Shown piece after piece: positions 5,934-27,156 of a stretch of DNA of 64,000 nucleotides. The position numbers were made by a program, and so were the translations under genes. Position 1 is the first letter of the stretch. The number at the start of each line of letters is the position of its first letter. A model generated the notes under the pieces. The model did no database searches. It was not told the origin of the DNA and worked only from the letters and a program-made list of their open reading frames with translations. Origin of the DNA: an uncultured Planctomycetota bacterium (GTDB taxonomy: Bacteria > Planctomycetota > Planctomycetia > Isosphaerales > Isosphaeraceae); contig CAVTTN010000002.1 of assembly GCA_963737655.1 (NCBI GenBank), positions 704,001-768,000 of the forward strand, read 5' to 3'.

Positions 5934-5936
5934 CAC

Positions 5937-7658: not shown

Positions 7659-7793
7659 GATCGCGACCCTTGGTCTGGCCGGGAGAGGGGAAGGGACCGT
7701 CCCGGGAGAATGATCAGATGAGTTCAGGCCAAAACGTGAACAGCCCGCCCCCGGAGCCTACGCGGGCGATCGGCCCGCGTGACGCCCTTGGGG

Positions 7794-8903
7794 TCAATCC
7801 TCCTCCTCGGCCTCGTCGTCGTCCTCGAAGATCCCCTTCTTGGCCAGCTCGATCCGCTCCTTCAGCTCGGCGACCTTGCGGGCCTTGTAGAGGACCTCGT
7901 CCTCCTCCACCAGACCCTGCCTCCAGAGGTTGAAGAGCGAGTCGTCCAGGAGGATCATCCCGTGCTTCCGCCCGGTCTGGATCGAGCTGTCGATCCGGTA
8001 CGTCTTGTTCTCGCGGATCAGGTTGGAGATGGCCGGGGTGACGACGAGCATCTCGTACGCGGCCACCAGCCCCTTGGGCTTCCTCGGCAGCAGCGCCTGG
8101 GCCAGGATGCCGATGATCGCCACCGAGAGCTGGGTGCGGATCTGGTCCTGCTGCTCCTTGGGGAACACGTCGATGATCCGGTTGACCGTCCCCTCGGCCG
8201 AGTTCGTGTGGAGGGTGCCGAAGACGATGTGCCCGGTCTCGGCCGCGGTGATCGCCGCCGAGATCGTCGCCAGGTCCCGCATCTCGCCCACGAGGATGAT
8301 GTCCGGGTCCATCCGCAGGGCCCGCTTGATCGCCTCGGGGAAGTCCGGCACGTCGATCCCGATCTCCCGCTGGTTCACCAGGGACTTCTGGTGCTTGTGG
8401 TAATACTCGATCGGGTCCTCGATGGTGATGATGTGGCGGTCCATGTTGTTGTTGATCCAGTTGATCATGGACGCCAGGCTCGTCGTCTTGCCCGAACCCG
8501 TCGGCCCGGTCACGAGGATGAGCCCCCGGGGCCGCGTGATCAACTGCTCGATGACCGCCGGCAGCCCCAGCTGCTCGAACGTCAGGAATTCGTTGGGAAT
8601 CCTCCGAAGGACCAGCCCGATGTTGCCTCGTTGCTTGAACACCGCCACGCGGAACCGCGCCATGTCCCCGAAGGCGAACCCGAAGTCGGTCCCGCCGACC
8701 TCCTGGAGCTCCTGCTGACAGCGCTCGGGCGTGATGCTCTTCATCAGCGCCGAGGTATCCGCCGGCTCCAGGATCTTGGTCGCCAGGGGCCTCATGTGGC
8801 CGTGGAGCCGCAAGGTCGGCTGCGCGCCCACCGTCAGGTGGAGGTCGCTGGCCTTCTGGGTGACCGTCGTCTGCAACAGCTTGTCGATGAGGAGCGTGCC
8901 CAT
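7794..8903 (-). CDS. pilT: PilT retraction ATPase
   Basis: Start MGTLLIDKLL at 8903; ASDLHL, GPTGSGKTT, TIEDPIE, QREIG.D, LRMDPDIILVGEMRD, AISNLIRE (AIRNLIRE-like). Confidence 0.93.
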   Translation of the reverse strand: MGTLLIDKLLQTTVTQKASDLHLTVGAQPTLRLHGHMRPLATKILEPADTSALMKSITPERCQQELQEVGGTDFGFAFGDMARFRVAVFKQRGNIGLVLRRIPNEFLTFEQLGLPAVIEQLITRPRGLILVTGPTGSGKTTSLASMINWINNNMDRHIITIEDPIEYYHKHQKSLVNQREIGIDVPDFPEAIKRALRMDPDIILVGEMRDLATISAAITAAETGHIVFGTLHTNSAEGTVNRIIDVFPKEQQDQIRTQLSVAIIGILAQALLPRKPKGLVAAYEMLVVTPAISNLIRENKTYRIDSSIQTGRKHGMILLDDSLFNLWRQGLVEEDEVLYKARKVAELKERIELAKKGIFEDDDEAEEED

Positions 8904-9237
8904 GAAACTCCCTGTCCCCCGCGAAGGACCCTCGACACGGGAGCCGTCCGGGCCCCATCGTCCGAGGACTTGACTTTGTCTCGCAATCCAGATGTCCGGC
9001 CGAACGCAGCGGGGGAGATTTGAGTTACGACGAGAGGACGAGCGTCCCTGTCGCACTCGCATTATTCGGGCGGACTCTCCGAAGACAAGCGCCTTCTCGC
9101 CCGAACCTGCGCCCCCTCGGGACGTTTCACGCGGGCCGAGGGTCCCCACGGAGGCCCGCGACCCCCCGAGTTCGACCCAAAGACGCACGGGCCGAGGGGC
9201 GCCGGGAAGCCCCTCGGCCCGCGGTTGGGTCGCCGAC

Positions 9238-10962
9238 TCAGCCCACCCCGGCCAGAGACTCGTGGTGGGTGATCCGCAAGACCTCGTCGATGGTGGTCAA
9301 ACCCTTCATCGCCTTGATCATGCCGTCCTCGAAGAGAGTGCGCATCCCCTGTTTCCGGGCCGCTTTGCGGATCACCTGGGTCGGCTCCCCCTTGAACGTC
9401 ATCTCGCGGATCGTGTTGGTCATCGACATCAGCTCGTAGATGCCCATCCGTCCACGATAGCCCGACTTGCTGCAATAGGTGCAGCCCTTGCCCTTCATGA
9501 AATTCGCCTTCTTGGCCAGCTCCGGGCGAAGGCCCAAACTCTGGAGGATGTGGCCCGGCGGCTCATACCGGACGCGGCACTTCGGGCAGACCTTCCTCAC
9601 CAGACGCTGGGCCATGATCCCCATGACGGACGAGGCCACCAGGAACGGCTGGACCCCGATATCGACCAGTCTCGTAACAGCACTGGGCGCATCGTTCGTG
9701 TGCAGCGTACTGAAAACCAGGTGTCCGGTCAGGGAGGCCTGGATCGCCGTATTCGCGGTCTCCTCGTCGCGAATCTCGCCCACCAGGAGGATGTTGGGAT
9801 TCTGCCGGAGCATGGCACGGATGATGCGTGCAAACGTCATCCCAATCTTGGCTCGAACCTCGCACTGATTGATGCCGGGCAGGTAGTACTCGACCGGGTC
9901 CTCGGCGGTGATGATCTTGACGTCCGGCCGGTTCAGCTCGTTCAGGGCGGCGTACAGGGTGGTGGTCTTGCCCGACCCGGTCGGCCCGGTCACGAGCAAG
10001 ATGCCGTTGGGCCTCTTGATGAGCTGCGAGAACCTCTTCCAGTCCTCGTCGCCGAAGCCCAGGTCGCGGAGGCCGACCTTGATGTTCTCGCGATCGAGGA
10101 TCCGCATGACGACCGACTGTCCATGCACGGTTGGGATGATGGAGACTCGCAGGTCGATGTCCTTGCCGGCGACGTGGACCTTGATCCGGCCGTCCTGGGG
10201 TCGGCGCTTCTCGGCGATGTCGATCGAGCCCATGATCTTGAGCCGGGAGACCATCGAGCCGAGGAGGCGGCGGGGGGGCGAGTCGCGTTCCATGCAGACG
10301 CCGTCGATCCGATAGCGGATGCGGACGCGGTCGGCGAACGGCTCGATGTGGATGTCCGAGGCCCTCATCGCCACGGCTTCCTGGATGATCAGCTGGACGA
10401 GCCGGATGACCGGGGCGTCCCCCTCGTCGACGCCCCCCGCGCCGCTCCGGCTGCTGCCCCCGCCTTCGTCGGAGAAGTCGATGGCCGTGTCGGTGAATTC
10501 CTGGAGCATCGAGTCGACGGACTCGGTCTCCTGGGAGCTCGACCCGTAATAGCGGTTGATCGCCTCGACGATCGCTTCCTTGGGGGCCAGGGCCATGGTG
10601 ATCTCGCGGTTCAGGACGAACCGGAGCTTCTCGATGGTCTCGAAGTTCAGCGGGTCATGCATGATGACCTTGATCACGCCGTTGTCCTGGGACATCGGCA
10701 TGACGATGTTCTCGCGGGCGAGCGATTCGGGGATCAGCTCGACGACGCCCGAGGGGATCTCGACCTCGCTGAGGTCGACGTAATCCATGTTATGCTGCTC
10801 GGCCTTCGCCTTCATGATCTGGTCGGGATCGGCGTAGGTGAGCTTGACCAGGGCATCCTCGACGTTGACGCCCTTGATGCCCTGGGCCTCCTTCAACTGG
10901 TCGGGGCCGATGACCCCGCGACGGATGAGGATGTCGGTCCACTCGCGGCTCTGCTTGGCCAT
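9238..10962 (-). CDS. PilB/GspE assembly ATPase (copy 2)
   Basis: ASDIHIEP, PQDGRI, GPTGSGKTTT, EDPVEY, LRQNPNILLVGEIRD, CPKC...CTYC. Confidence 0.93.
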   Translation of the reverse strand: MAKQSREWTDILIRRGVIGPDQLKEAQGIKGVNVEDALVKLTYADPDQIMKAKAEQHNMDYVDLSEVEIPSGVVELIPESLARENIVMPMSQDNGVIKVIMHDPLNFETIEKLRFVLNREITMALAPKEAIVEAINRYYGSSSQETESVDSMLQEFTDTAIDFSDEGGGSSRSGAGGVDEGDAPVIRLVQLIIQEAVAMRASDIHIEPFADRVRIRYRIDGVCMERDSPPRRLLGSMVSRLKIMGSIDIAEKRRPQDGRIKVHVAGKDIDLRVSIIPTVHGQSVVMRILDRENIKVGLRDLGFGDEDWKRFSQLIKRPNGILLVTGPTGSGKTTTLYAALNELNRPDVKIITAEDPVEYYLPGINQCEVRAKIGMTFARIIRAMLRQNPNILLVGEIRDEETANTAIQASLTGHLVFSTLHTNDAPSAVTRLVDIGVQPFLVASSVMGIMAQRLVRKVCPKCRVRYEPPGHILQSLGLRPELAKKANFMKGKGCTYCSKSGYRGRMGIYELMSMTNTIREMTFKGEPTQVIRKAARKQGMRTLFEDGMIKAMKGLTTIDEVLRITHHESLAGVG

Positions 10963-11225
10963 GGCCGGGGCTCCAACGAGACGAAGCGGTCAGGAGCGGG
11001 GTCCATCCGGGTCGATCTCCGGGGGCAACGGCGAACGAGACCAGCCCCGAGAGGCCGGATCGCGGGCCGAGGTCGCCCTCGGGGGATGGTGGCAGAGGGA
11101 GGGCGCGGCCGCCTTGGGAGCGGTCAGGGGCCTCGGAATCGATCCTCGACGAACCGAACCGAACTTTGCCCGACGGGGCCGCGACCGAGCAAGGCGAGAT
11201 GAAGAGATGACCCGGACGATGTCAT

Positions 11226-11996
11226 CTAGGCTAGCACAGCCGGATCGTCCGAACAAGCATCCAATTGCCCCGGTCGAGGCGTTCCGGGCGTTCGGGCGTC
11301 GCCGGTCCTCGTCCCGTCGACGAGGGCGGACCGACGGGCCAGCCGCCCGAGCCAGGCGGTCACCGCGGCCGTCGCCGCGACCCCCACGCCCAGCAGGGCC
11401 CACTCGCCGGCCGTCCTCGACCGCCCGCCCGAGGCGGCCTCCAGCCCCGCGAGGCCGGCATCGCCCAGGCTCACATACAGCAGCGTCCCCGGCAGCATCG
11501 CGACGGCGGTCGCCGCCACGCTCGGCCCGAACCGGACGGACGTCAGCCCCAGGGCGTAGTTCAGCACGTTGAACGGGACCACCGGCGACAACCGCAACAG
11601 GGCCACGACCTTCCAGCCACCTCGATCGACGGCCGAATCCAGGGCCGCCAGCCGGGGCCGTCGCGCGAGCCATCGCGACACCGGCCCCCTCCCGCCAGAC
11701 CGGGCGATCAGGAACGCCAGCGTCGCGCCGACATTCGAGGCGATCACCACGACCAGGAAGCCCGTCCCGACCCCGAAGATCGCCCCGGCCGCCAGGGTCA
11801 GGGGAGACGCCGGGACCATCGCCACCACCGAGCCGACATAGGCGACCCCGAAGGCCAGAGGCCCCCACGGCCCCAGCCCCCGGACCCGATCCGCCATCGT
11901 CGTGAAGCCCGGCCCCCATCGAGTCGCCGCCCAGACGGCCATCCCGATCAGGGCCACGATCGCCGCCCGACGGGCCAGGTGCCGACCTCGGACCAT
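11226..11996 (-). CDS. TVP38/TMEM64 (DedA/VTT domain) membrane protein
   Basis: C-terminal part of track ORF 11226..13829 from ATG 11996; LAAGAIFG, GATLAFLIAR, LLRLSPVVPFNVLNYALGLT, LPGT motifs. Confidence 0.88.
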   Translation of the reverse strand: MVRGRHLARRAAIVALIGMAVWAATRWGPGFTTMADRVRGLGPWGPLAFGVAYVGSVVAMVPASPLTLAAGAIFGVGTGFLVVVIASNVGATLAFLIARSGGRGPVSRWLARRPRLAALDSAVDRGGWKVVALLRLSPVVPFNVLNYALGLTSVRFGPSVAATAVAMLPGTLLYVSLGDAGLAGLEAASGGRSRTAGEWALLGVGVAATAAVTAWLGRLARRSALVDGTRTGDARTPGTPRPGQLDACSDDPAVLA

Positions 11997-12182
11997 CCTC
12001 GGCCCTCCTCCAGGAATGATCGGCAGGGCGGAACCGGCCCGGAAAGGTCGGCCGCCCGCATCGGTCCCGCGACGAAAGGGGCGGTCCTCCCGATTGGACC
12101 ACGGACGACCGGGGCTTGCCATCCCCCGTCGCCAGCCGTCGCCCTTGCATCGCCCCCGCCGCCGATGGGAGAATCGCTCGTC

Positions 12183-14576
12183 ATGAACGCCTCGTTCGCC
12201 GCTTTCATGCTGGCGGTCGTCGTCCCTCCGGGGTTCGTGGTCGATCGCCGGGCCGAGGGACTCACGGGCGCCACGGCGATGGCGATCTCGCCCGATGGCC
12301 GCCTGTTCGTCTGCGAGCAAACCGGCGCGCTCCGGCTGGTGAAGGACGGCCGCCTCCTGGCCGAGCCGTTCGTCCGCCTTCGCGTCGATTCTCGCTGGGA
12401 GCGCGGGCTGATCGGCGTGGCGATCGACCCGGAATTCCCCCGCGAGCCGTTCGTCTACGTGAACTACGTCGCCGACGCCCCGTTCCCCCACCATCGGATC
12501 TCTCGGTTCACGGCCTCGGGCGACCGGGCCGATCCCGAATCGGAAAAAGTCTTGTTCGAGGGGGGCGACCAGGAGAAGCTCGGCGGCTCGGTCCCCTCCG
12601 GGCACCAGGGAGGCGCGATCCACTTCGGCCGGGACGGCAAGCTCTACGTCGCCCTGGGGGAGCAGACCGCCGGCTCGCCCTCTCAGGACCTCCATTCGCT
12701 CCTGGGCAAGCTGTTGAGGATCGACCGCGACGGCTCGATCCCGGCCGATAACCCGTTCTTCGATCGAACCGAGGGCAAGTACCGGGCGATCTGGTGCCTC
12801 GGGCTGAGGAACCCGTTCGGCTTCGCCGTCGATCCCCTCTCCGGCCGGATCTTCCTGAACGACGTGGGGGGCAACTTCGAGGAGATCAACGAGGCCGGGC
12901 CCGGCCGCAACTTCGGCTGGCCGACCGTCGAGCACGGCCCGACGAAGGATTCCCGGTTCGTCGGCCCGATCCACTGGTATCCGACCAGCTCGATCACCGG
13001 AGGGGCCTTCGCCCCGCGAAGCGGCCCGCTCCCGGCCGAGTGGCGGGGCCGGTATTTCTTCCTCGACTTCATGAAGGGCTGGCTCAGGACGCTCGACCCC
13101 GACCGCCCCGGAGACGTCCGCGAATTCGCCTCCGGGCTCGCCCGGCCGACCGACCTGGCCTTCGCCCCGGACGGTTCGCTGTATGTCTTGCAACGCGATG
13201 CCTGGGTGATCGACAAGGATTTCCGACCAGGGACCGGCTCGGTCCTCCGCGTCCGGTTCGAGCCGGGCCCTGGAACCCTTCCGGAGAGGCCGAAGGATGT
13301 CACCATCGGCCCGGTCCCGCCGTTCCCCACGTTCCTGCCGCCCCCGGGCCGCTTCACCGGGCCGATCCGGGTGAGGATCACCGCGAAATCGCCCGTTCGG
13401 TTCACCCTCGACGGCTCGGAGCCCTCCATCGAGTCGCCGATCGCGACCGGGCCAATCCCTCTGGATCGCTCGGCGACCCTGAAAATCCGCCCATTCCGCG
13501 ATGGCCAGCCGATCGGCCCCGCCCTGACAGCCGAATATCGCATCGGGGGCCGAACCGCGTTCGGGCTCGCCGATCGACCGGAGGCCCCGAGGCTCCCGCT
13601 CTCGCTCGACCCGAACTCCTGGCCGAAACGGCTCTCCGAGGTCGGGGCGTTCGCCGACCTCGCCGCGATGACCCCCGCCCCGGGCTTCGTGCCCTTCGCC
13701 GTGAACAGCCCGTTGTGGTCCGACGGCGCGGCGAAGCGGCGATGGATCGCGTTGCCCGGTGGTGCCACGATCGAATTCCGCCCGACCGGCGAATGGCGGT
13801 TCCCTCGCGGGACCGTCTTCGTGAAGCACTTCGAGATGCCCCGAGAAGGCGCCCCTCCGCGACGCCTGGAAACCCGGATCACCGTGGCCGACGGCTCCGG
13901 CCTCGGCGCCGCGGCCACCTATCGCTGGGGAGAGGACGGCCGGGACGCCGACCTCCTCGCCGACGGGCGAGACGAGGCCATCGCCACCTCTTCCGACGCC
14001 TCACGTCGTCAAACCTGGTCCTATCCCTCGCGTGATGATTGTTTGAAGTGCCACACCAGGGCCGCCGGCTTCGTCCTCGGCCCCAGCGCCCGTCAGCTCA
14101 ACGGGCCGTTTCGTTATCCGACGACCGGCATCGAGGACCATCAAATCCGCTCCTGGAGCGCCCAGGGGATGTTTAGTCGGGCGGTCCCGGACGAGGAAAT
14201 CCCGAAGTTAGCGAGGCTCTCGCCGATCTCGGACGAATCGGCGACGGTCGAGCACCGCATTCGGTCGTATCTCGATTCCAATTGCGCCAACTGCCACCGC
14301 CCCGGCGCGAACATCCCGGCGGCCTTCGATGCCCGATGGGACTGCCCCGAAGCCGACCGCAAGATCCTCGACGCCCGGACCGTCAGCGACGGCCTGGGGA
14401 TCGCCAATCCCAGGGTCGTGGCCCCGGGAGACGTCTCCCGGTCGATGATCCATCAAAGGATCATCCAGACCGAGAGGTACAAGATGCCGCCGGTCGGCAG
14501 GAACGTCGTCGATCGCGGAGCGGCCGACCTCCTGGCCGGGTGGATCGCCGGTCTCGGCGGCTCGAAGTCGAAGTAG
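12183..14576 (+). CDS. PQQ-dependent glucose/sorbosone dehydrogenase-family protein with Fn3/chitobiase-like and c-type cytochrome domains
   Basis: ERGLIGVAIDP, HQGGAIHFGRDGKLY, GLRNPFG, EEIN..GRNFGWP; RFTLDGSEP; VNSPLWSDGAAKRRWI; heme motifs CLKCH and CANCH. Start could also be 12165. Confidence 0.85.
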   Translation: MNASFAAFMLAVVVPPGFVVDRRAEGLTGATAMAISPDGRLFVCEQTGALRLVKDGRLLAEPFVRLRVDSRWERGLIGVAIDPEFPREPFVYVNYVADAPFPHHRISRFTASGDRADPESEKVLFEGGDQEKLGGSVPSGHQGGAIHFGRDGKLYVALGEQTAGSPSQDLHSLLGKLLRIDRDGSIPADNPFFDRTEGKYRAIWCLGLRNPFGFAVDPLSGRIFLNDVGGNFEEINEAGPGRNFGWPTVEHGPTKDSRFVGPIHWYPTSSITGGAFAPRSGPLPAEWRGRYFFLDFMKGWLRTLDPDRPGDVREFASGLARPTDLAFAPDGSLYVLQRDAWVIDKDFRPGTGSVLRVRFEPGPGTLPERPKDVTIGPVPPFPTFLPPPGRFTGPIRVRITAKSPVRFTLDGSEPSIESPIATGPIPLDRSATLKIRPFRDGQPIGPALTAEYRIGGRTAFGLADRPEAPRLPLSLDPNSWPKRLSEVGAFADLAAMTPAPGFVPFAVNSPLWSDGAAKRRWIALPGGATIEFRPTGEWRFPRGTVFVKHFEMPREGAPPRRLETRITVADGSGLGAAATYRWGEDGRDADLLADGRDEAIATSSDASRRQTWSYPSRDDCLKCHTRAAGFVLGPSARQLNGPFRYPTTGIEDHQIRSWSAQGMFSRAVPDEEIPKLARLSPISDESATVEHRIRSYLDSNCANCHRPGANIPAAFDARWDCPEADRKILDARTVSDGLGIANPRVVAPGDVSRSMIHQRIIQTERYKMPPVGRNVVDRGAADLLAGWIAGLGGSKSK

Positions 14577-14603
14577 GCGTCGGGGCGATGCGGCCCTCCG
14601 GGT

Positions 14604-15194
14604 TCAACGTTCCGCGCCCCGGCCCTCGGTGGGCTCGGATTCGCGCTTCGGCTGGACGTTCACCGTCATCGCCTTCCCGAGCAATCGGGGCAGGTGTTCC
14701 ACCGCCGTCTTGAGGTCCGCCTGGTCGTCATCGAGGTAGAAGGTCGTGGGCTCCCGGCCGCGAAGGGTCAGCGACCAGGAGGCGGAATGGGGCGCATCAT
14801 AAGTGCCCGACGGCGGGTCGAGCCGGGACTTGGCCACCTCGCCCGACCCGACCCGGAGGTTCGTCGGATGGTTGCCCACCGCCTTCGCCGGCCCCTTCGC
14901 GTCGAGCCGGCGCACCGCGGCCCGTTTGGTCAACCAGCCGAGCCCGCCGAGCAGGAGTATGATCGGGATGATCAGAAGCAGGGCAAAGCAACCGTCCGGG
15001 CCCTGCAAGCCCAGGTCCAGCCGGCCTCCGCGAACCAGCCCGAAGACCCAGCGGACCCGGATCAGGTAAAGGGCGTCCGGGCCGACATACACGCGATACA
15101 GGGGCCAGCCCACCTCACCCTTCACCCGGGCGTTGAAGGCGGGCCACTCCCCGAGGGCCCGGATTCGCTCGGTCCCCTCGTCTGGTTCCCCCAT
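14604..15194 (-). CDS. Hypothetical single-TM protein directly downstream of the retron RT (candidate effector or accessory gene)
   Basis: ATG 15194, 22 nt after the RT stop, same strand; 196 aa; hydrophobic CFALLLIIPIILLLGGLGWL followed by basic residues. No family recognised. Confidence 0.65.
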   Translation of the reverse strand: MGEPDEGTERIRALGEWPAFNARVKGEVGWPLYRVYVGPDALYLIRVRWVFGLVRGGRLDLGLQGPDGCFALLLIIPIILLLGGLGWLTKRAAVRRLDAKGPAKAVGNHPTNLRVGSGEVAKSRLDPPSGTYDAPHSASWSLTLRGREPTTFYLDDDQADLKTAVEHLPRLLGKAMTVNVQPKRESEPTEGRGAER

Positions 15195-15216
15195 GTCTCG
15201 ATTCGCTCCGCCCGCC

Positions 15217-16557
15217 CTACCCGGACTGTTCCGGGTCCCGGTCCCTCCAGTCGATGCGACCGAACATCTCATGCAACTTTCGGCCCCGATCGGGATGAAG
15301 CGAGGCGACATGGGCGATCCGGCCCAGCAGATGCGCCCGGAAATCGTCGTGAGGCCGTCGATTCTGCCCGAGAGGGCCGTGCCTCACGCAGTTGTGAAGG
15401 ATCGCCTTCAACGTGTCGTAGTCGCCACGAACCACATTGGGCCGCTCGTTGAGCACCACGCCCGCGACCCGCTGGCGGACGCCCCGTCTCATGATCCGCG
15501 TCTTGCGCGTGTGGACCTCGAACCCCTCTTCCAGCGCGATGGCGCCGACCTGGATGGAGAATCGGCCGACGGATCGCTCGAAATCCCGATCGCCGGAGAA
15601 GGCCAGGTCGTCGGCATAGCGGGTGTAACGGGCCCCCGAGGACTCGGCCAGGGCGGAGAGGCGGACGTCCAGGCGATGGGCGGCCAGGTTGGCCAGGGCC
15701 GGGGAGGTTGGCGCCCCCTGGGGCAGGTGGGGATGCTCATGGAGACGGCGAAACCGCCAGGAATCGGCCGTCCGGGGAGGGGCCGCGGGATCGTTCCAGA
15801 CCGAGCCCGGCACGCGGTTGGTGGCCAGCCCCGAGAGCAAACGGGCCACCGGCTCGGGATAGCCGGCGGTCAGGAACAGGGCCGTCACCCGGGCCGAGGA
15901 GATCGTCGGAAAGAAGTCCTTCAGGTCCATCTTCAGCACCACGCGACGCCCCACGTGCGGATCGACGAAGGTGCGAATCGATCGACCCGGTCGAAAGCCG
16001 TGGACCGAGTCGTGAGGGGGGATCATCGCCACGATCTCGCGGAGGGCCCGCCTCTGGACCAGCTTCAGGCGAGGCCGGGGGGCTTCGACCAGGCGAAAGG
16101 CCCCCGATCGCTTGGCGACCCAGCGATACGAGTAGCGCCTCGGGGCACCCGCCGGAGACCTCCGCTCAAGCCCCCGGGGATCGGCCAGCCATTCCAGCTC
16201 GCGGAGGCCGATTTGGAGCTGATCGGCCAGGGCCGAGGGGGTCGTCAACGGCGGGACCGGCCAGGAGGACGGCAAGCCCGGGGCGGGCCACATCACGGCC
16301 GGCGGATCGAGCGGCCGAGGCCCCGTCCGCAAGTCGGGCAATCCGGCGCAACCGCGACAAAACCCCCGATCCCGCAGAAAGAAATCGACCAGCCGCCCCG
16401 AGGTCGGGCGAGTCGGAGTCGCAAATTCCACCAGGACCCGCCGGAGGAGCGAAGCCATCCACCGAGGCCGCCGACCCAGGGCCGATCGCGCCCTCTCCGC
16501 AAGGTCTTCCTTCCGCCAGGGGCCCAGGACCAGGGCCTCGGCCAGGCGACGAGCCAC
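15217..16557 (-). CDS. Retron-type reverse transcriptase (446 aa)
   Basis: KRSGAFRLVEAPRPRLKLVQR, VHGFRPGRSI, KMDLKDFFPTI, LPQGAPTSPALAN, YTRYADDLAFSG, KTRIM, QRVAGVVLN (retron region Y, VTG-like). No maturase or endonuclease domain. Confidence 0.93.
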   Translation of the reverse strand: MARRLAEALVLGPWRKEDLAERARSALGRRPRWMASLLRRVLVEFATPTRPTSGRLVDFFLRDRGFCRGCAGLPDLRTGPRPLDPPAVMWPAPGLPSSWPVPPLTTPSALADQLQIGLRELEWLADPRGLERRSPAGAPRRYSYRWVAKRSGAFRLVEAPRPRLKLVQRRALREIVAMIPPHDSVHGFRPGRSIRTFVDPHVGRRVVLKMDLKDFFPTISSARVTALFLTAGYPEPVARLLSGLATNRVPGSVWNDPAAPPRTADSWRFRRLHEHPHLPQGAPTSPALANLAAHRLDVRLSALAESSGARYTRYADDLAFSGDRDFERSVGRFSIQVGAIALEEGFEVHTRKTRIMRRGVRQRVAGVVLNERPNVVRGDYDTLKAILHNCVRHGPLGQNRRPHDDFRAHLLGRIAHVASLHPDRGRKLHEMFGRIDWRDRDPEQSG

Positions 16558-16581
16558 GCGGCGGGTTCGCGAAGGATAAGA

Positions 16582-16754
16582 CAGCGGCGGCGCTCCAACC
16601 CGTCTCGTCCGGCGTGAGCAGTTCTACGTGAAGCGTAGTCCCGCTCACGCCTCGCCTGGGACCAAATCAAACGCTCCCCCGGGGTAACCCCGGAGAGGTG
16701 GGAAGCCATCGCGAGACGGCCGAACCACCCGCTTGGAAAACGCCGCCGCTGATC
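16582..16754 (-). ncRNA. Retron msr-msd non-coding RNA
   Basis: Perfect 11-bp terminal IR cagcggcggcg (16582-16592) / cgccgccgctg (16741-16751), extended by tccaa (16594-16598) / ttgga (16733-16737). An unpaired G follows in AAGC context (16732). Two msr hairpins (16697-16729, 16679-16693) and one msd hairpin (16611-16651). Lies just upstream of the RT. Confidence 0.85.
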
Positions 16755-16759
16755 CGCTG

Positions 16760-16788
16760 AACATAAGGGCGACCTCGACGGATGTCAA
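16760..16788 (-). promoter_or_regulatory. Sigma70-type promoter of the retron
   Basis: Minus strand TTGACA (16788-16783), 17 nt, TATGTT (16765-16760). Predicted start ~16754-16753, 2-3 nt before the 5' IR arm. Confidence 0.8.
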
Positions 16789-16924
16789 GGTCTTTCGATC
16801 CTTCCCGAACGACCGCAAAAGGGAGCAACACGGGGAAAGGGAACGTGCCGGAAAGCAGCAATTGCATGCAATGCTTCGCTCCGTCCCCCTTGCGCGCCCT
16901 ATACTTCCCCTATCGCCGCCTGCT

Positions 16925-16945
16925 CGTGGTCACGCATTGACCACG
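16925..16945. terminator. Hairpin just after the FG-GAP gene (possible terminator or stability hairpin)
   Basis: cgtggtca-cgcat-tgaccacg, 8-bp stem; no U-tract. Confidence 0.35.
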
Positions 16946-16967
16946 TCACGAGGAGGCCAAAGGTCTT

Positions 16968-18857
16968 CTACGGAGCCTTCCTGACCTGTTTTGTGATCCG
17001 ATGCGCGGTCGCCTTCTTGGCAACAGTTGCGGAGTTGGCCATCGGCAGCACGGGGTGACGGTTGAACTGGAACCGCCCCTGGAAGTCGCCCCCGGGTTGG
17101 GCGTTGCCGGTCGGGAACTTGCCCGTGAATTCGCCGTCGAGCGCCTTGCCCGCGAGGTCGACGATGCCTCCGGAATGGACCACGATCACGTATCGCCCGT
17201 GGCGCAGAGGGCGACCGCCGTTGATCGTCAGCGCCACGGTCCGCGACGTGCCGTCCAATCCCGAGACGCTCACGCCCGTGATCGCGACGGGCTTGTGACC
17301 GAACGATGAGAACGGGCCAAGCACCGCGTAATTCGCCACGGTGGTCAGCGACGCCAGGTCCAGGCCGTTCGGGGCGGAGAACGTGAGGAGCACTTGCCCC
17401 CTGGCGTATTGGACGGTCGCCGCCGTGATCTGGGGCCCGTCGCTACTGACCGGGGTACTGCCCGACGAACCACTTCCGGACGAATCGCTGCCGGACGATC
17501 CGCCGCCGGACGATCCGCCGCCGGACGAACCGCCGCCGGACGAACCGCCGCCGGACGAACCGCCGCCGGACGATCCGCCGCCGGACGATCCGCTGTCGGA
17601 CGATCCCGTGCCGGTGAGGAGGATTCCAACCTCGGCCGGGTTGGTTGTGACGGTCATCAGGTCGGCGAGGCCGTCGCCGTTGAGGTCGCCGGCCGCCAGG
17701 TCGCTCGCGCCATTGAACCCGACGCTGGGGACCGGGATGGGGGCGCTTGTGACGAAATGGCCATCGCCGCTCCCTGGCGCGACGCGGACCTCGTTCAGCG
17801 GATACGTCGGGACCGCCAGATCGATCTTGCCGTCGCCGTTGAAGTCGCCTGCCACCAGCGTGCCCGACGCGGCCCCGAACCCGACGAAGGCGTTGGGAAT
17901 TGCGGCGAACGTGCCGTCGCCGATGCCGCCCAGGACGATCACGCTCCCATCGTCCTGGTTCACGGCCGCCAGGTCGAGCTTGCCGTCGCCGTTGAAATCC
18001 GCCCGGACCAGGCTCGAGGATGCGAAGCCGATCGGGGTCGTCCCGCCCAGGCGGAACGTGCCGTCGCCGTTGCCCAGAAAGGTTTGTTCCGAGGTCGAGT
18101 TGAGCGTGACCCCCGCCAGGTCGAGCTTGCCATCGCCGTTGAAGTCACCGGCCACCAGTCCGGGCGCCACGGCGGTCGAGAGGCCGAGGTCCCCGGCCGA
18201 CCCCGCCGCGTGGAGCGTCCCGTCCCGCTCGCCCAGGAAAGCCAGGACCGGACCGGTCACCGGGCCGATGGGCGGAGGGGAACCGGGTTGGGCGAAGGGC
18301 GGCGGTGGGCCGGACATGAGCTTGGCCCCGTACGCCACGGCGAGGTCCGAGACCCCGTCGCCGTTGAAGTCGCCCGCCACGAGGCGCGTGGGGACGGGGT
18401 AGCTCGGGTCGATCACCCCGAAGCCCGGGGCCGTCGCCCCCAGCTGGAACGTGCCGTCGCCGTTGCCCAGGAACTCGATCACGATCGCGTTGTTGCTCGC
18501 GTCGACCCCCGTCGAGGCCACGTCGAGCTTGCCGTCGCCGTTGAAGTCCCCCACGGCGAGATTCCCGCTCAGGGCGGGCGTGGCCGTGTCAAAGGAGCCG
18601 ATGAACCCGCCCTTGCCGTCCCCCAGCAGGGTCGTGATCACCCCTCCCTGGGCTGATCCGTTGTATTGCGGCGTTTCCGTCACAACGTCGAGCTTGCCGT
18701 CGCCGTTGAAGTCGCCCGTCGCGACCGAATTCGCGCCGGTGGCCACCGGGTAGACCACCGCCGGGCGGAACGCAACCGTCAGGAGCAGACGGGCTTCGAG
18801 CCCGTCGAGGACCGGGCGAACGCTCTGCGGAAGTCGGTTTCGAGGCTTCAGGTTCAT
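16968..18857 (-). CDS. Secreted FG-GAP/VCBS repeat protein with planctomycete LEPR-XLL-like N-terminus
   Basis: RPVLDGLEARLLL; seven (G/A)D(F/L)NGDG..D repeats; Gly/Ser linker; C-terminal DLAGKALDGE...GGDF domain. Confidence 0.9.
   Translation of the reverse strand: MNLKPRNRLPQSVRPVLDGLEARLLLTVAFRPAVVYPVATGANSVATGDFNGDGKLDVVTETPQYNGSAQGGVITTLLGDGKGGFIGSFDTATPALSGNLAVGDFNGDGKLDVASTGVDASNNAIVIEFLGNGDGTFQLGATAPGFGVIDPSYPVPTRLVAGDFNGDGVSDLAVAYGAKLMSGPPPPFAQPGSPPPIGPVTGPVLAFLGERDGTLHAAGSAGDLGLSTAVAPGLVAGDFNGDGKLDLAGVTLNSTSEQTFLGNGDGTFRLGGTTPIGFASSSLVRADFNGDGKLDLAAVNQDDGSVIVLGGIGDGTFAAIPNAFVGFGAASGTLVAGDFNGDGKIDLAVPTYPLNEVRVAPGSGDGHFVTSAPIPVPSVGFNGASDLAAGDLNGDGLADLMTVTTNPAEVGILLTGTGSSDSGSSGGGSSGGGSSGGGSSGGGSSGGGSSGGGSSGSDSSGSGSSGSTPVSSDGPQITAATVQYARGQVLLTFSAPNGLDLASLTTVANYAVLGPFSSFGHKPVAITGVSVSGLDGTSRTVALTINGGRPLRHGRYVIVVHSGGIVDLAGKALDGEFTGKFPTGNAQPGGDFQGRFQFNRHPVLPMANSATVAKKATAHRITKQVRKAP
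17461..17605 (-). repeat. 15-bp tandem repeat encoding a (GGGSS)n linker
   Basis: ccggacga(t/a)ccgccg x6 (17491-17580) plus degenerate flanking copies. Confidence 0.9.
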
Positions 18858-19010
18858 CAGTACACCCGGTGAAGGAGAGGCGACACGTCACAAAGTCGCC
18901 AATACCCCCAGTATAACACAGACGTGATCGTTATACCACCAAAGCGGGACGCATTGCATGAGCCGCAGGCCCCTTCGGAAGTCCACCGCCCCATCCGATC
19001 GGACGCCGCT

Positions 19011-19934
19011 CTAAGGCGAAGCCACCAAATCCCGACCGCGGCTATACTGCCTCGGAGAGCAGCCCATGACCCTCTTGAACGCCGTGCTGAAGGCGCTCTC
19101 GGATTCGTAGCCGAGCGACCGCGAGATCACCGAAATCGAGTCGCCGGAGTGCTTCAGCCGGTCCCCGGCCAGGAGGATCCTCCAGCGAATCAGGTAGTCG
19201 ATGGGCGTCGAGCCGACGGTCTCCTTGAATCGCTCGGCGAAGGCCGACCTCGACATCCCGACCTTCCCCGCCAGCTCTTGAAGGGTCCAGGGATGGGCGG
19301 GCTCCTCGTGGATCGCGTGGATGGCCACGCTCATCTGCGGGTCCGCCAGGGCGAAGAGCCAACCGACGCTCCCGCTCAGCCCCTCCGCCAGATGCGCACG
19401 CAGGGCCTGGACGAACAGCATGTGGGCCAGGTGCTGGATGACCAGGAAGCCGCCCGGTTGCGGCTCGCGAAGCTCCTGCATCATCCGCTCGATGGACCAG
19501 CGGAGCGCCCGCCTGTCCGCCTCCTTCTTGATGTGGACGATCGGCGGGAGCATGCCCAGGAGGATCCGGGCGTGGTTCTTCTCGAAGTCGAAATACCCCC
19601 CGACGCCGGAGACATCGCCTCCGCCGTTCCAGACGGAGATGCTCCCGTTCAGGGGCTTCTTGTACACCGAGCGGAAGTCGGTCGGCGGCAGGGCGACGTC
19701 GCTCGTCAGCCGGAACGGCCGCCCCAGGGGGAGGAGGAAGCAATCGCCCGACCCGAGGTGCACCGCCTCGGCGACGCCCTCCACGACCAGCCAGCACTGG
19801 CCGGAGACGATCGCATAGCACTTGATCCCGTCGTGCTCGGGGAACTGGAGCGACCAGTCCCCGCCCACGTCGAAGCCGCCGCACATCGAATTCTGCGGCT
19901 TCAGCAGCGAAAGCACGCCCGAGAGCGGGTCCAT
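19011..19934 (-). CDS. AraC-family regulator with cupin N-terminus (RclR-like)
   Basis: MDPLSGVLSLL start; PWTLQELA..VGMSRSAFAERFK; LGYESESAFSTAFKRVMGCSP. Confidence 0.93.
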   Translation of the reverse strand: MDPLSGVLSLLKPQNSMCGGFDVGGDWSLQFPEHDGIKCYAIVSGQCWLVVEGVAEAVHLGSGDCFLLPLGRPFRLTSDVALPPTDFRSVYKKPLNGSISVWNGGGDVSGVGGYFDFEKNHARILLGMLPPIVHIKKEADRRALRWSIERMMQELREPQPGGFLVIQHLAHMLFVQALRAHLAEGLSGSVGWLFALADPQMSVAIHAIHEEPAHPWTLQELAGKVGMSRSAFAERFKETVGSTPIDYLIRWRILLAGDRLKHSGDSISVISRSLGYESESAFSTAFKRVMGCSPRQYSRGRDLVASP

Positions 19935-20049
19935 CGGACCTCCTGGACGATCTCGAAGAAAGATTGGACTGTAAAGCATAGATCGTCGCGAGCCAAAAGC
20001 CTACCCTTTCGATCGTGGGACCGAAAGTCACATTCCGGGAGGCTTCCTG

Positions 20050-20955
20050 ATGCGTGTTTTCGTCACCGGCGCGACGGGCTTCATCGGCACCGAGGTCGTC
20101 CGCGATCTGATCGAGGCGGGTCATTCGGTGCTCGGCCTCTCCCGTTCGGACAAGGGCGCCGCGGCCCTCTCGGCCGCCGGGGCCGAGGTGCACCGGGGCG
20201 ACCTCGAGGACCTGGCCAGCCTGAGGAGCGGCGCGTCGGCCTCGGACGGGGTGATCCACCTCGGCTTCATCCACGACTTCTCCAGCGTCTCGCGGTTCCA
20301 GGAGGTCTGCGAGGCGGACCGGCGGGCCATCGGGGCGATGGGCGACGCCCTGGCCGGCTCCGACCGCCCCTTCGTCATCACGTCCGGCACCGGGATGGGG
20401 ACCAGGGCGCCGGGCCAGCTCGCGACCGAGGACCACTTCGACCCCCATCACCCGAACCCCCGAGCGGGCTCGGAGATCGCGGCGGAGGCGGTCGCCTCGC
20501 GAGGGGTTCGCGTGACGGTGGTGCGGCTGCCGCAGGTGCACAACACGGAGAAGCAGGGCCTGGTCACGCCCGTGATCGCGGTCGCCCGCGAGAAGGGCGT
20601 CGCGGCGTACGTCGGCGACGGGCTCAACCGCTGGCCCGCGGTCCACTTGCTCGACGCCGCGCCCGTCTATCGGCTGGCGCTGGAGAAGGGGCCGAACCGG
20701 GCGAGGTATCACGCGGTCGCCGAGGAGGGCGTGACGGCCCGGTCGATCGCCGAGGCCATCGGGCGGGGCCTGAAGCTCCCGGTCGAGTCCCTGTCGCCCG
20801 AGCAGGCCGCCGGCCACTTCGGCTGGCTCGGGATGTTCGTCGGTTGGGACATGCCGGCGTCGAGCACCCTGACGCAAGAGAGGCTGGGATGGCACCCGAC
20901 GCAGAAGGCCGGGATGATCGAAGACCTCGACCACATGGACTGGTCAGCGGCCTGA
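20050..20955 (+). CDS. NAD-dependent epimerase/dehydratase (SDR) family oxidoreductase
   Basis: MRVFVTGATGFIG, DGVIHLGFIHDF; divergent from the AraC gene. Confidence 0.93.
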   Translation: MRVFVTGATGFIGTEVVRDLIEAGHSVLGLSRSDKGAAALSAAGAEVHRGDLEDLASLRSGASASDGVIHLGFIHDFSSVSRFQEVCEADRRAIGAMGDALAGSDRPFVITSGTGMGTRAPGQLATEDHFDPHHPNPRAGSEIAAEAVASRGVRVTVVRLPQVHNTEKQGLVTPVIAVAREKGVAAYVGDGLNRWPAVHLLDAAPVYRLALEKGPNRARYHAVAEEGVTARSIAEAIGRGLKLPVESLSPEQAAGHFGWLGMFVGWDMPASSTLTQERLGWHPTQKAGMIEDLDHMDWSAA

Positions 20956-21010
20956 GGAAAAAGGTTCCTGACCTGCCCTGCAGCAACCCCCGTTAGAAGT
21001 AGGGAAGCGA

Positions 21011-21075
21011 GTAGGTCCGACTTCAGTCGGGCCTACGAAATGTCTCGTTTTGTAGGCCCGACCGAAGTCGGGTAC
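21011..21075. repeat. GTAG-type REP-like palindrome doublet
   Basis: gtaggtccgacttcagtcgggcctac (21011-21036) and gtaggcccgaccgaagtcgggtac (21052-21075); 21017-21036 vs 21052-21071 is a 20-bp IR with one mismatch; lies between convergent genes. Confidence 0.7.
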
Positions 21076-21187
21076 GCGATTCGAGGCGCGAATCCCGTTC
21101 GAAGTCGGGCCGACTCGAGCGACCCCTTCGATCGGGGTCTTCTAAAAAGCATCCCTGACCCCATCTCTGCCGGTCGGTTCGTAGTCG

Positions 21188-22996
21188 CTATTTCTCGCCG
21201 GGGAACTCGACCAGGGTCTGCCTCATGGCCTCGGGCGGCCTGGTCGCGAAGACCCGGCCGCCGAGGTTGTTGAGGATGTGGGCGATCTCGCTGCCGGGCC
21301 GGCCGTCCAGCCAGATCGTCGTCAGGTGGTGGAACTCCACTCCGGGGACGTTGGGCGCCTCGATGGCGGCGTGGGCCTTCACGGGCGCGTCTCGGAAAAA
21401 GCAATAGACACCCACGCCCCAGGCCTCGTGGCGGGTCACGCCGTCGGCGACCTTGTACGAGGCGAAGCCCTCGGTCTTGCCGCTCATCCAGGACTTCTGG
21501 TCGGGCACGTCGTACGGCATCTCCGACTGGTACATGTACACGCGGCCGCCGTTGCCGTTCCAGAGCGTCTGGTATTCCTCGTGGTGCTCGTTGAACAGGC
21601 CGTAGATGGTCACGTCGTCGCCGTCCACCACCAGGCCATTCTTCGTCGGGTTGGTGGTCCACCCGGCGCCGGCGCCGTGGTCCGCCCGCCAGATCCAGAT
21701 CTGGTCCGCCACGACGTGGTGGCTGTTGATCCGAACGCCCACGTCGTTCTTGCCCGCCGCGGGGCCGCCGGTGCGCACCGTCAGGTCATAGAGGAAGGTG
21801 GGATTGGCCGAATGATCGGCCTGGCTGCCCGGGGGGCCGACCTCCAGGAGCGTCGGCGACTTCACCGGGCCGGCGTCGAGGATCAGGCCGGCGACCTTCA
21901 CGCCGTCCACGTCGGCCACCGAGAGGATCGGAAGGCCCTTCGTCGGGATCAGCGAGGGCACGCCGAGGCCGAGGAGGATGGTATCGGCCCGGGTCACGCG
22001 GAGGGTGTCGTCGAGTGAATACACGCCGGGCGTGAACAGGATGTGCTTGCCCCCGGCCATCGCGGCGTTCAACCTCTCGGCCGTCGCCTCGCCCGGACGG
22101 GCGATGTGGAAGCGATCGATGGGGATCGACTCGCCGGGCGTGGGGCCGTCGAGCCAGCTCACGCCCCGGGCATTGGTCTTGAGGGCCGGGACGAACACGC
22201 GGTACTCGCCGGAGCCGTCCAGGAAGAGGTACGGCTTTTCCCGGATCACGGGCGTCCGGTCCACCACGGTGTAGGGCGGGTTCGGGAAGGTGCCGTCGGG
22301 GGTGTTCTCGCAGCCGACGAACACCATGTTCCAGACGGCGTTGCTCCACCCCGACCACTTGCTGTTGCGCGAGAGCCACTGCTGCTGAGAGGCGGGGACG
22401 ACCTTGCCATCGACGACCGAATCGGCCAGGAACCCGCCGCTGGCATAGCCCACGTTCCCCTTCGGGCCCCAGTCGAACAATTGGAGCTCGCCCCGGACGT
22501 GGAGCCTCCGCAAGGGGGCGGCCTGGGAGATCGCGATCCGGGTGATCCCCTTGTTGGTCTTGTAGGGCACGTCGGACGACGGGGTGACGGCGAAGTTCTC
22601 CAGGGTCCGCCAGAAGTTGTTCAGGGCGTTGCCGTCCGGGTCCCACTTGGCATTGACGGTCACCGAGCCGTCGATATGGACGTCGTCGGGGTTCCGACCC
22701 AGGCCGGCCACATGGGTGTAGAAGCCAACATTGAAGTTGACGTCATACTTGCCCGGCTTGAAGAGCAGGGCATAACGTTCGGGGCCGAACTGGTTCTTCT
22801 CCATCTTCGCGAAGACGTCATTCGCGGTTTTCTCAACCTCGGCGGCCGGCATCCGAGGGTCGAAGACGTATACGTTCGGGCCGAAGACGGTGGAATTGGC
22901 CTGAGGAGGATCGCCAAGAGCCACAGCGGGGATCGCCGAGCCCAGGACGGCAACGGCGGGCCAGACCAGGAGAATCGAACGCGCTAGCCAGACCAT
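21188..22996 (-). CDS. Secreted GH55-like beta-1,3-glucanase (often annotated coagulation factor 5/8-type protein)
   Basis: Signal peptide, then FGPNVYVFDP, QFGPERYALLFKPG, NFWRTLEN, SQAAPLRR, YASGGFLADS, SQQQW, WIWRADHG, YQSEMPYD; pattern recalled from bacterial GH55. Confidence 0.8.
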   Translation of the reverse strand: MVWLARSILLVWPAVAVLGSAIPAVALGDPPQANSTVFGPNVYVFDPRMPAAEVEKTANDVFAKMEKNQFGPERYALLFKPGKYDVNFNVGFYTHVAGLGRNPDDVHIDGSVTVNAKWDPDGNALNNFWRTLENFAVTPSSDVPYKTNKGITRIAISQAAPLRRLHVRGELQLFDWGPKGNVGYASGGFLADSVVDGKVVPASQQQWLSRNSKWSGWSNAVWNMVFVGCENTPDGTFPNPPYTVVDRTPVIREKPYLFLDGSGEYRVFVPALKTNARGVSWLDGPTPGESIPIDRFHIARPGEATAERLNAAMAGGKHILFTPGVYSLDDTLRVTRADTILLGLGVPSLIPTKGLPILSVADVDGVKVAGLILDAGPVKSPTLLEVGPPGSQADHSANPTFLYDLTVRTGGPAAGKNDVGVRINSHHVVADQIWIWRADHGAGAGWTTNPTKNGLVVDGDDVTIYGLFNEHHEEYQTLWNGNGGRVYMYQSEMPYDVPDQKSWMSGKTEGFASYKVADGVTRHEAWGVGVYCFFRDAPVKAHAAIEAPNVPGVEFHHLTTIWLDGRPGSEIAHILNNLGGRVFATRPPEAMRQTLVEFPGEK

Positions 22997-23680
22997 GTTG
23001 TACCCTCGACGAAGGCTCGACGCGGTTTCCCGGGATCCCCGGCGCAGGAACTCCTCTCCGAGAAGGCCCGAACGCGGGACCGCCAGTATAGGGGCCGGGA
23101 GGCCGCCGGGCCATCCCGGGGAAGGAACGGCGACCCCGGACAACCTCCATTGTCCTACTCTTCTTCGAGGGCCCGCGACGGCAATCCATCAGGTCGGATC
23201 GCTCCCGGGGAGCGAACGAGGCCGCTCCGATCGGATCTCGCGACGACGCGGGTTTTGACGCTACGCAGATCGGAGGGACAGCAGGTTTTCGAGCGGGACC
23301 TCCTCGTCCTCATCGTTTGCCGGGATGGATTTGACCATGACTATCCCGGGCTGGCGGCCGTCCACCAGGACCTTCCCGGAGGCCTGGACGAGCCTGCGGG
23401 CGTTCCCGAGGACCGACGAGGGCTTAAGGGGACGTTCCTATTTATCGGCGCGGTCTAATTGGGATTAGGAGGGAGTGCCCTCGTCTAGTAAATTGCCCAG
23501 AATGCCCAATCTACGACAAGAAATAAGAATGTCCCCTTTGCCCTCCGCGTGCTCAAGGGGCGATAAACCGTTCAGTATCGGGGACTTAACGCTAACTTCG
23601 CGGCATTCTAGAACGTCCCCTTCTCCCCTTCGAGTGAGGACACGAGGGCGGCCCCTCGTCCCGTTTCTGGGCCCCCTCGA

Positions 23681-24580
23681 TCATTTCATCTTGAGTGGCG
23701 GTGCCACCGGGAGCGGGGCCTTCGAGAACAGCTTGCTCAGGTTCGCCACGCTGGGCTTCGCGCCCTTCTTGAGGAGATCCTCGATCTCGTCCTCGGCCAT
23801 CGCGACGGGTGCCGCGGTCGAGAACTTGTACCTGACATCCTCGGCGAAATATTCGATGTTGTCCGCGTTGTACCAGGCACGCGAGGGACGATTGCTCGCG
23901 AGGTCGAGGCAGTCCGGGGTGCCATAACAGCTAGGACTCGAATTGTCGTGTGTGGAGTGGTCCTCGGTTCCGCATAGATTGTGCGAGAGTTCGTGAACCA
24001 AGGCCCCGCCGACGGTATCCGAGCCTCGGAGATTCATGGTGGATCGCCCATCGAGCCTCTTCTCGAAGAAGAGCTTGCACAACCCGATGCGACGGTCGTT
24101 GGCGTTCGGAAATGACTCGGCGTAGCCCTCGACGTCTCTGGCTATCAGGCGTATACGGGCCGGATTTGGGTAGTCGTTTAGCTCGCCGATCAGGGCGTCG
24201 CTTCCCCGATAGTAGACGGAGATTTCCTGGACGATGTGGCTCTGGATGGCCCCGAGGACGGCTCGCGCTCCTTTCCACCAGTCGGTGACCCGATTCCTTG
24301 GCCCGAACCAGCGGGTCATGAAATCCACGCCTTCGTCGTCGCCGTTGATGATGGCCCCGTTCGCCGCCATGTAGGCCGAGATGATCATGGCCCTCGCTTC
24401 GGCGATGGCGATCTCGACATCGTGATAGAGCAATGAATGGAGCAGATTCCGCGGGCCGCGGTTCGGCCAGTGGATGCCCGCGTAGTTGATCTGGCCGTAG
24501 GCCGCGACCGGGACGACGTGGCCAAATGCCGCCAGGGTCGCCGTGAGCTTGGCGCTGTCCTGTAGCACAGTAGTGGGCAT
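23681..24580 (-). CDS. M35/aspzincin-like zinc metallo-endopeptidase
   Basis: From ATG 24580 (MPTTVLQ): GALVHELSHNLCGTEDH...CYG...NADNIEYF matches HExxH + GTxD + YG + NAD of aspzincins; no signal peptide seen. Confidence 0.8.
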   Translation of the reverse strand: MPTTVLQDSAKLTATLAAFGHVVPVAAYGQINYAGIHWPNRGPRNLLHSLLYHDVEIAIAEARAMIISAYMAANGAIINGDDEGVDFMTRWFGPRNRVTDWWKGARAVLGAIQSHIVQEISVYYRGSDALIGELNDYPNPARIRLIARDVEGYAESFPNANDRRIGLCKLFFEKRLDGRSTMNLRGSDTVGGALVHELSHNLCGTEDHSTHDNSSPSCYGTPDCLDLASNRPSRAWYNADNIEYFAEDVRYKFSTAAPVAMAEDEIEDLLKKGAKPSVANLSKLFSKAPLPVAPPLKMK

Positions 24581-27147: not shown

Positions 27148-27156
27148 GGACCGGCC

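Follow-up and report, generated by a model that had tools for sequence, protein, structure and literature searches.

A probable stand-alone retron cassette of an orphan lineage in an uncultured planctomycete

Retron reverse transcriptases (RTs) were divided into 11 clades by Mestre et al. in 2020 (PMC7736814); type XIII retrons were placed in clade 10 and reported to be vertically inherited, and stand-alone (msr-msd)-RT cassettes were noted in a branch of clade 2 and in clade 11. In the passages concerned, such effector-less cassettes are acknowledged as unexplained, and two options are left for orphan retrons, effectors supplied in trans or a different mode of action (PMC7736814). The clade 11 sections of a 2026 SPIRE survey (PMC13712802) distinguish clade11-A and clade11-B, name the clade 11 RNA models OutgroupA and OutgroupB, and assign the low-confidence, divergent clade11-B candidates mostly to Planctomycetota. 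Here, a locus of this kind was analysed in a window of 64,000 nt (positions 704,001 to 768,000 of contig CAVTTN010000002.1) from an uncultured planctomycete of the family Isosphaeraceae; coordinates refer to this window, in which the cassette lies entirely on the minus strand. A promoter, a non-coding RNA (ncRNA) of msr-msd type and an RT gene are followed by an open reading frame (ORF) of 196 codons with one hydrophobic stretch (Table 1), and the whole had been taken in an initial annotation for a functional retron, possibly of an undescribed type and with the membrane protein as its third component. Judged by sequence comparison, the locus is very likely a stand-alone retron cassette of a known effector-less lineage, and the 196-codon gene a bystander.

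The RT was searched against the PADLOC models. The best match was RT_other (E = 9.7e-153, 507.8 bits, query residues 1–443 on profile positions 71–476 of 481), followed by RT_outgroup, which is labelled as a retron model (1.2e-144, 480.5 bits, residues 3–437 on positions 9–407 of 407), and by RT_XIII (6.9e-92, 306.9 bits); the last aligned only from residue 101, and the N-terminal extension of the RT is therefore not homologous to that of type XIII. Pfam RVT_1 was found in the protein. When a profile of 63 clade members was used to search the sequences of the PDB, the best 14 matches were all retron RTs (Ec86, 6e-43) and a group II intron RT reached only 6.6e-08. The AlphaFold2 model, calculated from the same 63-member alignment, had a pLDDT (predicted local distance difference test) of 89.9, and the top 17 Foldseek matches to it were retron RTs, led by that of Ec86 (E = 4.6e-18, template-modelling score 0.71 on the target). 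Catalytic D211 and Y314-A-D-D317 were invariant across the 63 sequences, and the window RT keeps all 60 invariant columns of the alignment. GC content by codon position was 0.72/0.54/0.82, as it is in real genes of this genome and unlike in the antisense ORFs. On these grounds the RT is placed in a retron lineage that PADLOC already models. Group II intron, diversity-generating retroelement and DRT/Abi RTs were considered as candidates and rejected, with NCBIfam scores of 50.6 bits for group II (cut-off 300), 32.3 bits for Drt2 (390) and 20.2 bits for Drt3a (200); long direct repeats of the template/variable kind were not found at the locus. The RT as annotated in the genome (P0004) comprises 358 amino acids, 80% of the ORF, starts at an internal methionine and omits the N-terminal domain.

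Upstream of the RT gene, an 11-nt perfect inverted repeat (CAGCGGCGGCG, 16741–16751 pairing with 16582–16592) bounds an RNA of 170 nt (16751..16582) and is lengthened in the minimum-energy fold to 12 + 5 pairs via UCCAA/UUGGA; the GTG start codon of the RT begins 24 nt after a2. The 221-nt stretch folded at −115.6 kcal/mol (z = −3.64), with none of 200 shuffles as good, and the DNA fold of the cDNA strand 16593–16668 was a 9 + 5 bp hairpin (z = −3.69). For a covariance model, the 228 nt that precede the start codon were aligned for 35 homologues and the span from a1 to a2 was then kept for 31 of them (alignment A2); L077, L086, L089 and L007 were excluded because the RNA lies further upstream there. 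RNAalifold returned 33 pairs on the 31-sequence alignment, 18 of which showed compensatory changes. The resulting model, R1, was used to search the window and 98 further loci (713,125 bases). It scored 157.7 bits at the window RNA, its sole match in the whole genome, and matched at full length (E ≤ 1.3e-07) upstream of 40/40 RT copies with the N-terminal extension (N-extended RTs; the window and 39 loci), including the four loci that were not in the seed. No match was obtained at the other 59 loci, which comprise those of type XIII, III-A and II-A RTs, of the type XIII paralogue in this same genome and of two fragmentary RTs (L012, one of the two, has no upstream sequence). The 13 further R1 matches came from the msd hairpin, which as a palindrome was also recognised on the opposite strand.

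In the R1 alignment of 39 sequences, 97.6% of cells were paired and 21 of the 33 pairs changed on both sides (136 cells). None of 500 shuffles attained any of five measures of covariation, and sliding the partners by 1–3 columns left 41–54% paired. The second msr hairpin was nearly invariant in this alignment, and the shape of the msd hairpin was kept through many compensatory changes. In the standard retron layout the branching G sits directly after a1; G27 of the 31-sequence alignment, which is 16732 in the window, is unpaired after the a1 stem and invariant in 31/31 sequences, and by analogy it would supply the priming 2'-OH. The structured RNA of about 170 nt between inverted repeats and the uninterrupted RT with its YADD motif, both pointed out in the initial annotation, were thus found again, and the further expectation that homologues should retain the repeat-bounded RNA held for every N-extended RT copy. 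In one family genome (G109), an IS605-type TnpB gene (OrfB_IS605, Cas12f1-like TNB and helix-turn-helix matches, L116:6765-7958) lies between the ncRNA (L077:28-209) and the RT start (L077:1498), and this insertion parts them by about 1.3 kb.

The promoter named in the initial annotation is present and was the sole sigma-70-like site across 14300..17100, where shuffles lead one to expect 0.1. A −35/−10 pair ending at the start of the RNA model and matching at least 9/12 consensus positions was found in 22 of 39 relative loci, compared with 2% of shuffled controls, and most of these pairs had a perfect TTGACA. Promoter position, RNA and RT recur jointly in the relatives, which is more than chance would give; together with the PADLOC, PDB, Foldseek and tree results, this bears out the earlier view of the locus as a retron-type unit. 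About 4 nt past the −35 TTGACA, a GTTCAG recurs in many relatives (TTGACAnnnGTTCAG; for example L078, L075, L084, L085 and L089) and is absent from the window's own promoter; it is possibly a regulator site. A 22-nt imperfect direct repeat (77%; 15202-15223 and 16875-16896) flanks promoter, ncRNA and RT and leaves the 196-codon ORF outside, and is probably due to chance in a GC-rich stretch of 3 kb. Neither a GC anomaly around the cassette nor a tRNA across 5000..30000 was found.

Table 1. Features of the retron cassette and of the second retron in the same genome.
Feature	Position	Strand	Basis
Sigma-70-like promoter TTGACA-17-TATGTT	16788..16760	-	10/12 consensus match
Retron-type ncRNA (msr-msd)	16580..16758	-	inverted repeats, fold, covariance model, covariation
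a1	16733-16751	-	inverted repeat and fold
a2	16582-16598	-	inverted repeat and fold
msr hairpins	16696-16730 and 16677-16695	-	fold
msd hairpin, 11+5 bp	16611-16651	-	fold
Candidate branching G	16732	-	unpaired, directly 3' of a1 stem
Retron RT, 446 amino acids	15217..16557	-	GTG start, no internal stop, YADD at residues 314-317
ORF with one transmembrane stretch, 196 amino acids	14604..15194	-	ATG 22 nt past RT stop, co-oriented
Type XIII retron	G000:C2 about 6183600-6188500 (L134: 594-4172 and 4183 onward)		PADLOC SWIM_XIII + RT_XIII

The best 120 database relatives of the RT (about 440 amino acids) were mostly 55–68% identical at 96–98% query coverage, the first 100 residues included; in-frame stops reported for fetched loci were the natural stop codons at the C-terminal end of the alignment. 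RT_other was the best PADLOC model in 9/9 N-extended homologues tested, and in the same scan 43 shorter RTs were assigned to RT_XIII (33), RT_III-A (5), RT_II-A (4) and an Ec107-like model (1). A quick IQ-TREE analysis was carried out on 73 rows from tblastn matches, after removal of L003 (a duplicate of L094) and of rows with a stop or with fewer than 280 amino acids. All 34 N-extended rows fell on one branch (100 in the Shimodaira–Hasegawa-like approximate likelihood ratio test, SH-aLRT) beside the type XIII groups, in keeping with the initial annotation's prediction that the RT would be found among the retron clades. The window RT clustered with those of two genomes of the same genus (SH-aLRT 98), and in all six genera represented by two or more rows these clustered together, a sign of vertical descent within genera; the lineage appears to have descended largely vertically within this planctomycete family. 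Beyond the family, members of the clade are present in further Planctomycetota and in metagenome-assembled genomes of Verrucomicrobiota, Acidobacteriota and Pseudomonadota. Within the family, 47/121 genomes carry an N-extended RT: as one uninterrupted full-length match in 31, split over two frames in five (G108, G013, G072, G036 and G025), with two in-frame stops in one (G034) and as a partial match in ten. Seven further family genomes reach E ≤ 1e-60 solely via the type XIII paralogue. The broken copies in six genomes suggest repeated loss.

For a gene partner of the RT, 27 loci were compared, namely the window, 20 family genomes (8-kb flanks) and six public contigs (4-kb flanks). No gene cluster was conserved next to the RT in more than 6/27 loci, the commonest being DUF1501, and the comparison of neighbourhoods proposed in the initial annotation thus yielded neither a conserved partner nor the accessory or effector gene of a tripartite defence retron. 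Pfam names adjoining the RT were mutually unrelated (DUF1501, DUF1553/PSCyt, peptidase S9, NorB, amidase, glycosyltransferases, malic enzyme and others). In 8/27 loci the next downstream gene is convergent and within 60 nt, so that the RT closes its transcription unit there. No recurrent fused form was found either: only six longer proteins reached E ≤ 1e-40, and all were singletons whose added domains differ. Pieces of one neighbourhood (DUF1501, SGL-type lactonase, xseA/xseB) are common to five genera, which fits old vertical residence followed by rearrangement rather than function.

Within about 8 kb of the window cassette, no familiar retron partner and no defence island were found, as the initial annotation had stated; a SWIM gene does exist in the same genome, about 5.4 Mb off, in a type XIII retron. 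The flanks encode a GSDH-like protein, an FG-GAP protein, an AraC regulator, an epimerase and two T2SS-E ATPases, and gave only weak P-loop matches of about 22 bits (ATPases) in PADLOC. The two ATPase genes adjoin each other (7797-10962, minus strand) and are of T2SS-E/PilB type (T2SSE, 8.8e-52 and 1.8e-134, the latter with MshEN). In an empty-site comparison, the FG-GAP flank had no match in three genomes of the same genus and G027, and the GSDH-like flank had just 35–44% identical matches in the three same-genus genomes, none of them beside that genome's RT copy. Among the other loci, xseA/xseB (Exonuclease VII) lies 3–5 kb from the RT in two genera (L122:3008-4829, L132:5345-7099); Exonuclease VII takes part in msDNA (multicopy single-stranded DNA) maturation in Salmonella, and the arrangement here looks like shared old synteny. 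Conflict-like genes occur co-oriented just past the RT at single loci, namely a caspase-type peptidase C14 plus a leucine-rich-repeat protein (L005:5415-6709), a BrnT toxin (L123:9403-9726) and a TMEM43-like gene (L117:9315-10667), and none recurs.

By analogy with characterised retrons, the cassette may work as follows. From the single promoter, transcription would begin a few bases ahead of a1 and run through the msr-msd RNA into the RT gene. The RT would bind the msr hairpins, chiefly the nearly invariant CUCCGGGG-UUA-CCCCGGGG hairpin, and the a1/a2 duplex would bring the 2'-OH of G 16732 close to the template, immediately 5' of a2. From there the msd would be reverse-copied from about 16599 toward about 16660, and the expected product is a branched msDNA of roughly 55–70 nt with a 9 + 5 bp hairpin that would remain bound to the RT. 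As to what such a product might do, a role as an accessory, defence-like sensor, via a trans partner or the RT's own N-terminal domain, has close to an even chance; some other cellular function is a serious possibility; and it is unlikely that the cassette has no role at present.

The RT is made up of an N-terminal five-helix domain (about residues 1–78), a linker and the RT palm, fingers and thumb. Residues 1–78 had a pLDDT above 90 both in the whole-RT model and when folded alone. In a fold search of 48,161 representative chains, the domain reached a best Z of 5.7 with middling helical bundles, and Foldseek returned nothing at E ≤ 0.001. Among 1.84 billion cluster representatives, 809 were matched at E ≤ 0.001 by a profile of the first 104 residues, and the match was almost always N-terminal; of 30 sampled matches of at least 243 amino acids, 18 had RVT_1 behind the domain, 11 had no Pfam match (many of them apparently truncated) and one had a sub-threshold redoxin match, so that in this sample the domain was seen solely with this RT. 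It may tentatively be suggested that the cassette is a retron free of a toxin partner, in which the N-terminal domain stands in for the effector or links the msDNA to some process of the host, and the msDNA is itself the functional product. If so, this would be a unit of promoter, ncRNA and RT that is vertically inherited within genera of this family and present in at least four phyla, with its msDNA and msr hairpins almost unchanged across them.

Alternatively, the cassette could rely on an effector encoded elsewhere, for example the SWIM/ARM proteins belonging to the type XIII retron of this genome, as raised for orphan retrons in the passages cited from Mestre et al. (PMC7736814). In this retron, some 5.4 Mb distant on the contig of the window, the gene for SWIM_XIII (7.3e-197) stands immediately upstream of that for RT_XIII (1.9e-158), and for the window RT the RT_XIII model comes next after the two that place it in its lineage. 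SWIM_XIII was found in 58/121 family genomes, but not at E ≤ 1e-20 in ten genomes with an N-extended RT, five of which are 92–99% complete (G053, 99%; G056, 98%; G076, G077 and G087, 92% each), so that dependence on SWIM_XIII is unlikely. R1 likewise has no match at type XIII loci, and an effector in trans is on balance rather improbable. The window cassette is not itself of type XIII, RT_XIII being only its third model and no SWIM gene lying within about 8 kb. In the type XIII retron, the RT stands in an open frame of 1381 amino acids whose C-terminal part has no family match and may be a high-GC artefact.

A further possibility, favoured in the initial annotation, is that RT, ncRNA and the 196-residue membrane protein make up a new, three-part type of retron in which the membrane protein is an effector restrained by the RT-msDNA complex. 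The ORF is where it was described, and small membrane effectors are known in type IV retrons, according to the part of the clade survey that deals with them (PMC7736814). Its one hydrophobic stretch comprises residues 70–88, and its GC content by codon position (0.72/0.50/0.86) is like that of real genes of this genome; the ORF is a real gene, and it may be co-transcribed with the RT here, no terminator being predicted between the two. The protein had no match in Pfam, PADLOC or NCBIfam. Two relatives were found among 5.8 billion clustered proteins (69% and 41% identity, on contigs of 1292 and 1339 nt), one of which (P0003) lacks most of the hydrophobic stretch, and two metagenome scans (with the single sequence and with alignment A3) gave no confirmed relative. 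In the ESM Atlas the protein matched unnamed clusters at 0.91–0.93; the nearest clusters with a name, at 0.82, are bacterial PH-like domains and no more than a lead.

Its distribution does not follow that of the RT. In a tblastn search against 99 loci, the protein matched its own copy alone (next best E = 0.75), and the gene stands beside none of the 39 other RT copies of the clade, two same-genus genomes included. A three-sequence profile found relatives in 11/120 other family genomes and in 0/3 same-genus genomes, which are 77, 96 and 71% complete, so that absence is not proven there. At the 12 other loci with a match, no RT lay within 1.5 kb; in the eight with the stronger matches the gene stands alone, looks monocistronic and mostly faces a convergent neighbour, and in genomes with both a relative and an N-extended RT the two are on different contigs. 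Since the ORF is absent beside other RT copies and its relatives stand away from RTs, a membrane-effector type is not supported, and the three-part arrangement is very unlikely; the gene is probably a lineage-specific neighbour and not a retron partner. The suggestion of an undescribed type is likewise not supported, as PADLOC already has retron models that the RT matches over its full length, and stand-alone cassettes are already in print in the sections of the clade survey cited above (PMC7736814). That the cassette is a decaying relic without activity is hardly credible: RTs are split or interrupted by stops in six relatives' genomes and a TnpB gene has entered the unit in G109, but the window's ORF is intact with every invariant column kept, the promoter, RNA pairs and branching G are conserved, and the coding signature and model confidence of the RT are those given above.

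Several points weigh against reading the locus as a stand-alone retron of a known lineage. NAxxH and VTG are hallmark motifs of retron RTs, and compared with Ec86 they are only half kept in the window RT (NNATPH to TFVDPH, VTG to VAG), the H and the G being invariant in the clade. The named retron families of NCBIfam stay below their cut-offs (St85, 175 of 235 bits; Ec67, 166 of 450; TIR, 161 of 600). Rfam has no match for the RNA, the three matches at E ≤ 10 being at chance level and all on the other strand, and the alignment from which covariation was measured had been fitted to the R1 model. The 22-nt gap, shared strand and lack of a predicted terminator give the 196-codon ORF the look of an operon partner, and genes in the relatives were called by a crude heuristic based on GC content at third codon positions (GC3). 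We infer that the lineage corresponds to clade 11 as defined by Mestre et al.; RT_other and RT_outgroup are equated with this clade from the model names given in the sections of PMC13712802 cited above, and clade 11 is called essentially actinobacterial where Mestre et al. describe it (PMC7736814). The PADLOC paper contains nothing on the two models, and the passages of a retron census preprint do not mention clade 11 and show, in figure legends, one orphan retron without a clade. Among the literature matches listed, no title or abstract beginning concerned planctomycete retrons or, for retron clade 11, the function of this lineage.

Current retron models require an effector that is restrained by the RT-msDNA complex. 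The locus and its 39 relatives provide a cleanly delimited orphan example, with a conserved promoter, a covarying RNA, a candidate branch G, a confident model of an RT whose N-terminal domain is specific to the lineage, and no partner in cis, and the function of orphan retrons can be addressed directly with a construct of about 1.6 kb. They also advise caution in that the next co-oriented ORF in gene-dense, high-GC genomes is not to be taken as a retron effector. What is new here is a further member of a known, functionally unexplained orphan retron lineage.

Among described systems, type IV retrons (RT and a small protein with two transmembrane stretches) resemble the locus in the gene for a small membrane protein just past the RT; the window ORF differs from theirs in having one such stretch and in not being conserved with the RT, and no type IV RT model was among the best 25 PADLOC matches. 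Ec86 (Eco1, type II-A) offers the closest solved structure, the same order of promoter, a1, msr, msd, a2 and RT, and the same QGAPxSP and YADD blocks. It differs in having an NDT effector and no N-terminal domain, and the window RT in turn has FVxPH for NAxxH, VAG for VTG and an insertion of about 27 residues ahead of QGAPTSP. Type XIII retrons (of the Mx162/Mx65 kind, RT with WH-SWIM and often ARM/HEAT proteins) have the next-closest RT model and an adjacent position in the tree, and share an N-terminal RT extension and vertical inheritance, the latter within genera in the window lineage. They are set apart by the lack of a SWIM or ARM gene near the window cassette, by a non-homologous extension, by the failure of R1 to match their loci and by the fully supported branch that carries the window clade. 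The clade 11 cassettes are closest: unlike these elements, which Mestre et al. call essentially actinobacterial, the window sub-lineage is found in the four phyla named above (Planctomycetota, Verrucomicrobiota, Acidobacteriota and Pseudomonadota), and like them it lacks a conserved accessory gene, has its ncRNA directly upstream of the RT and gives a full-length match to both PADLOC models.

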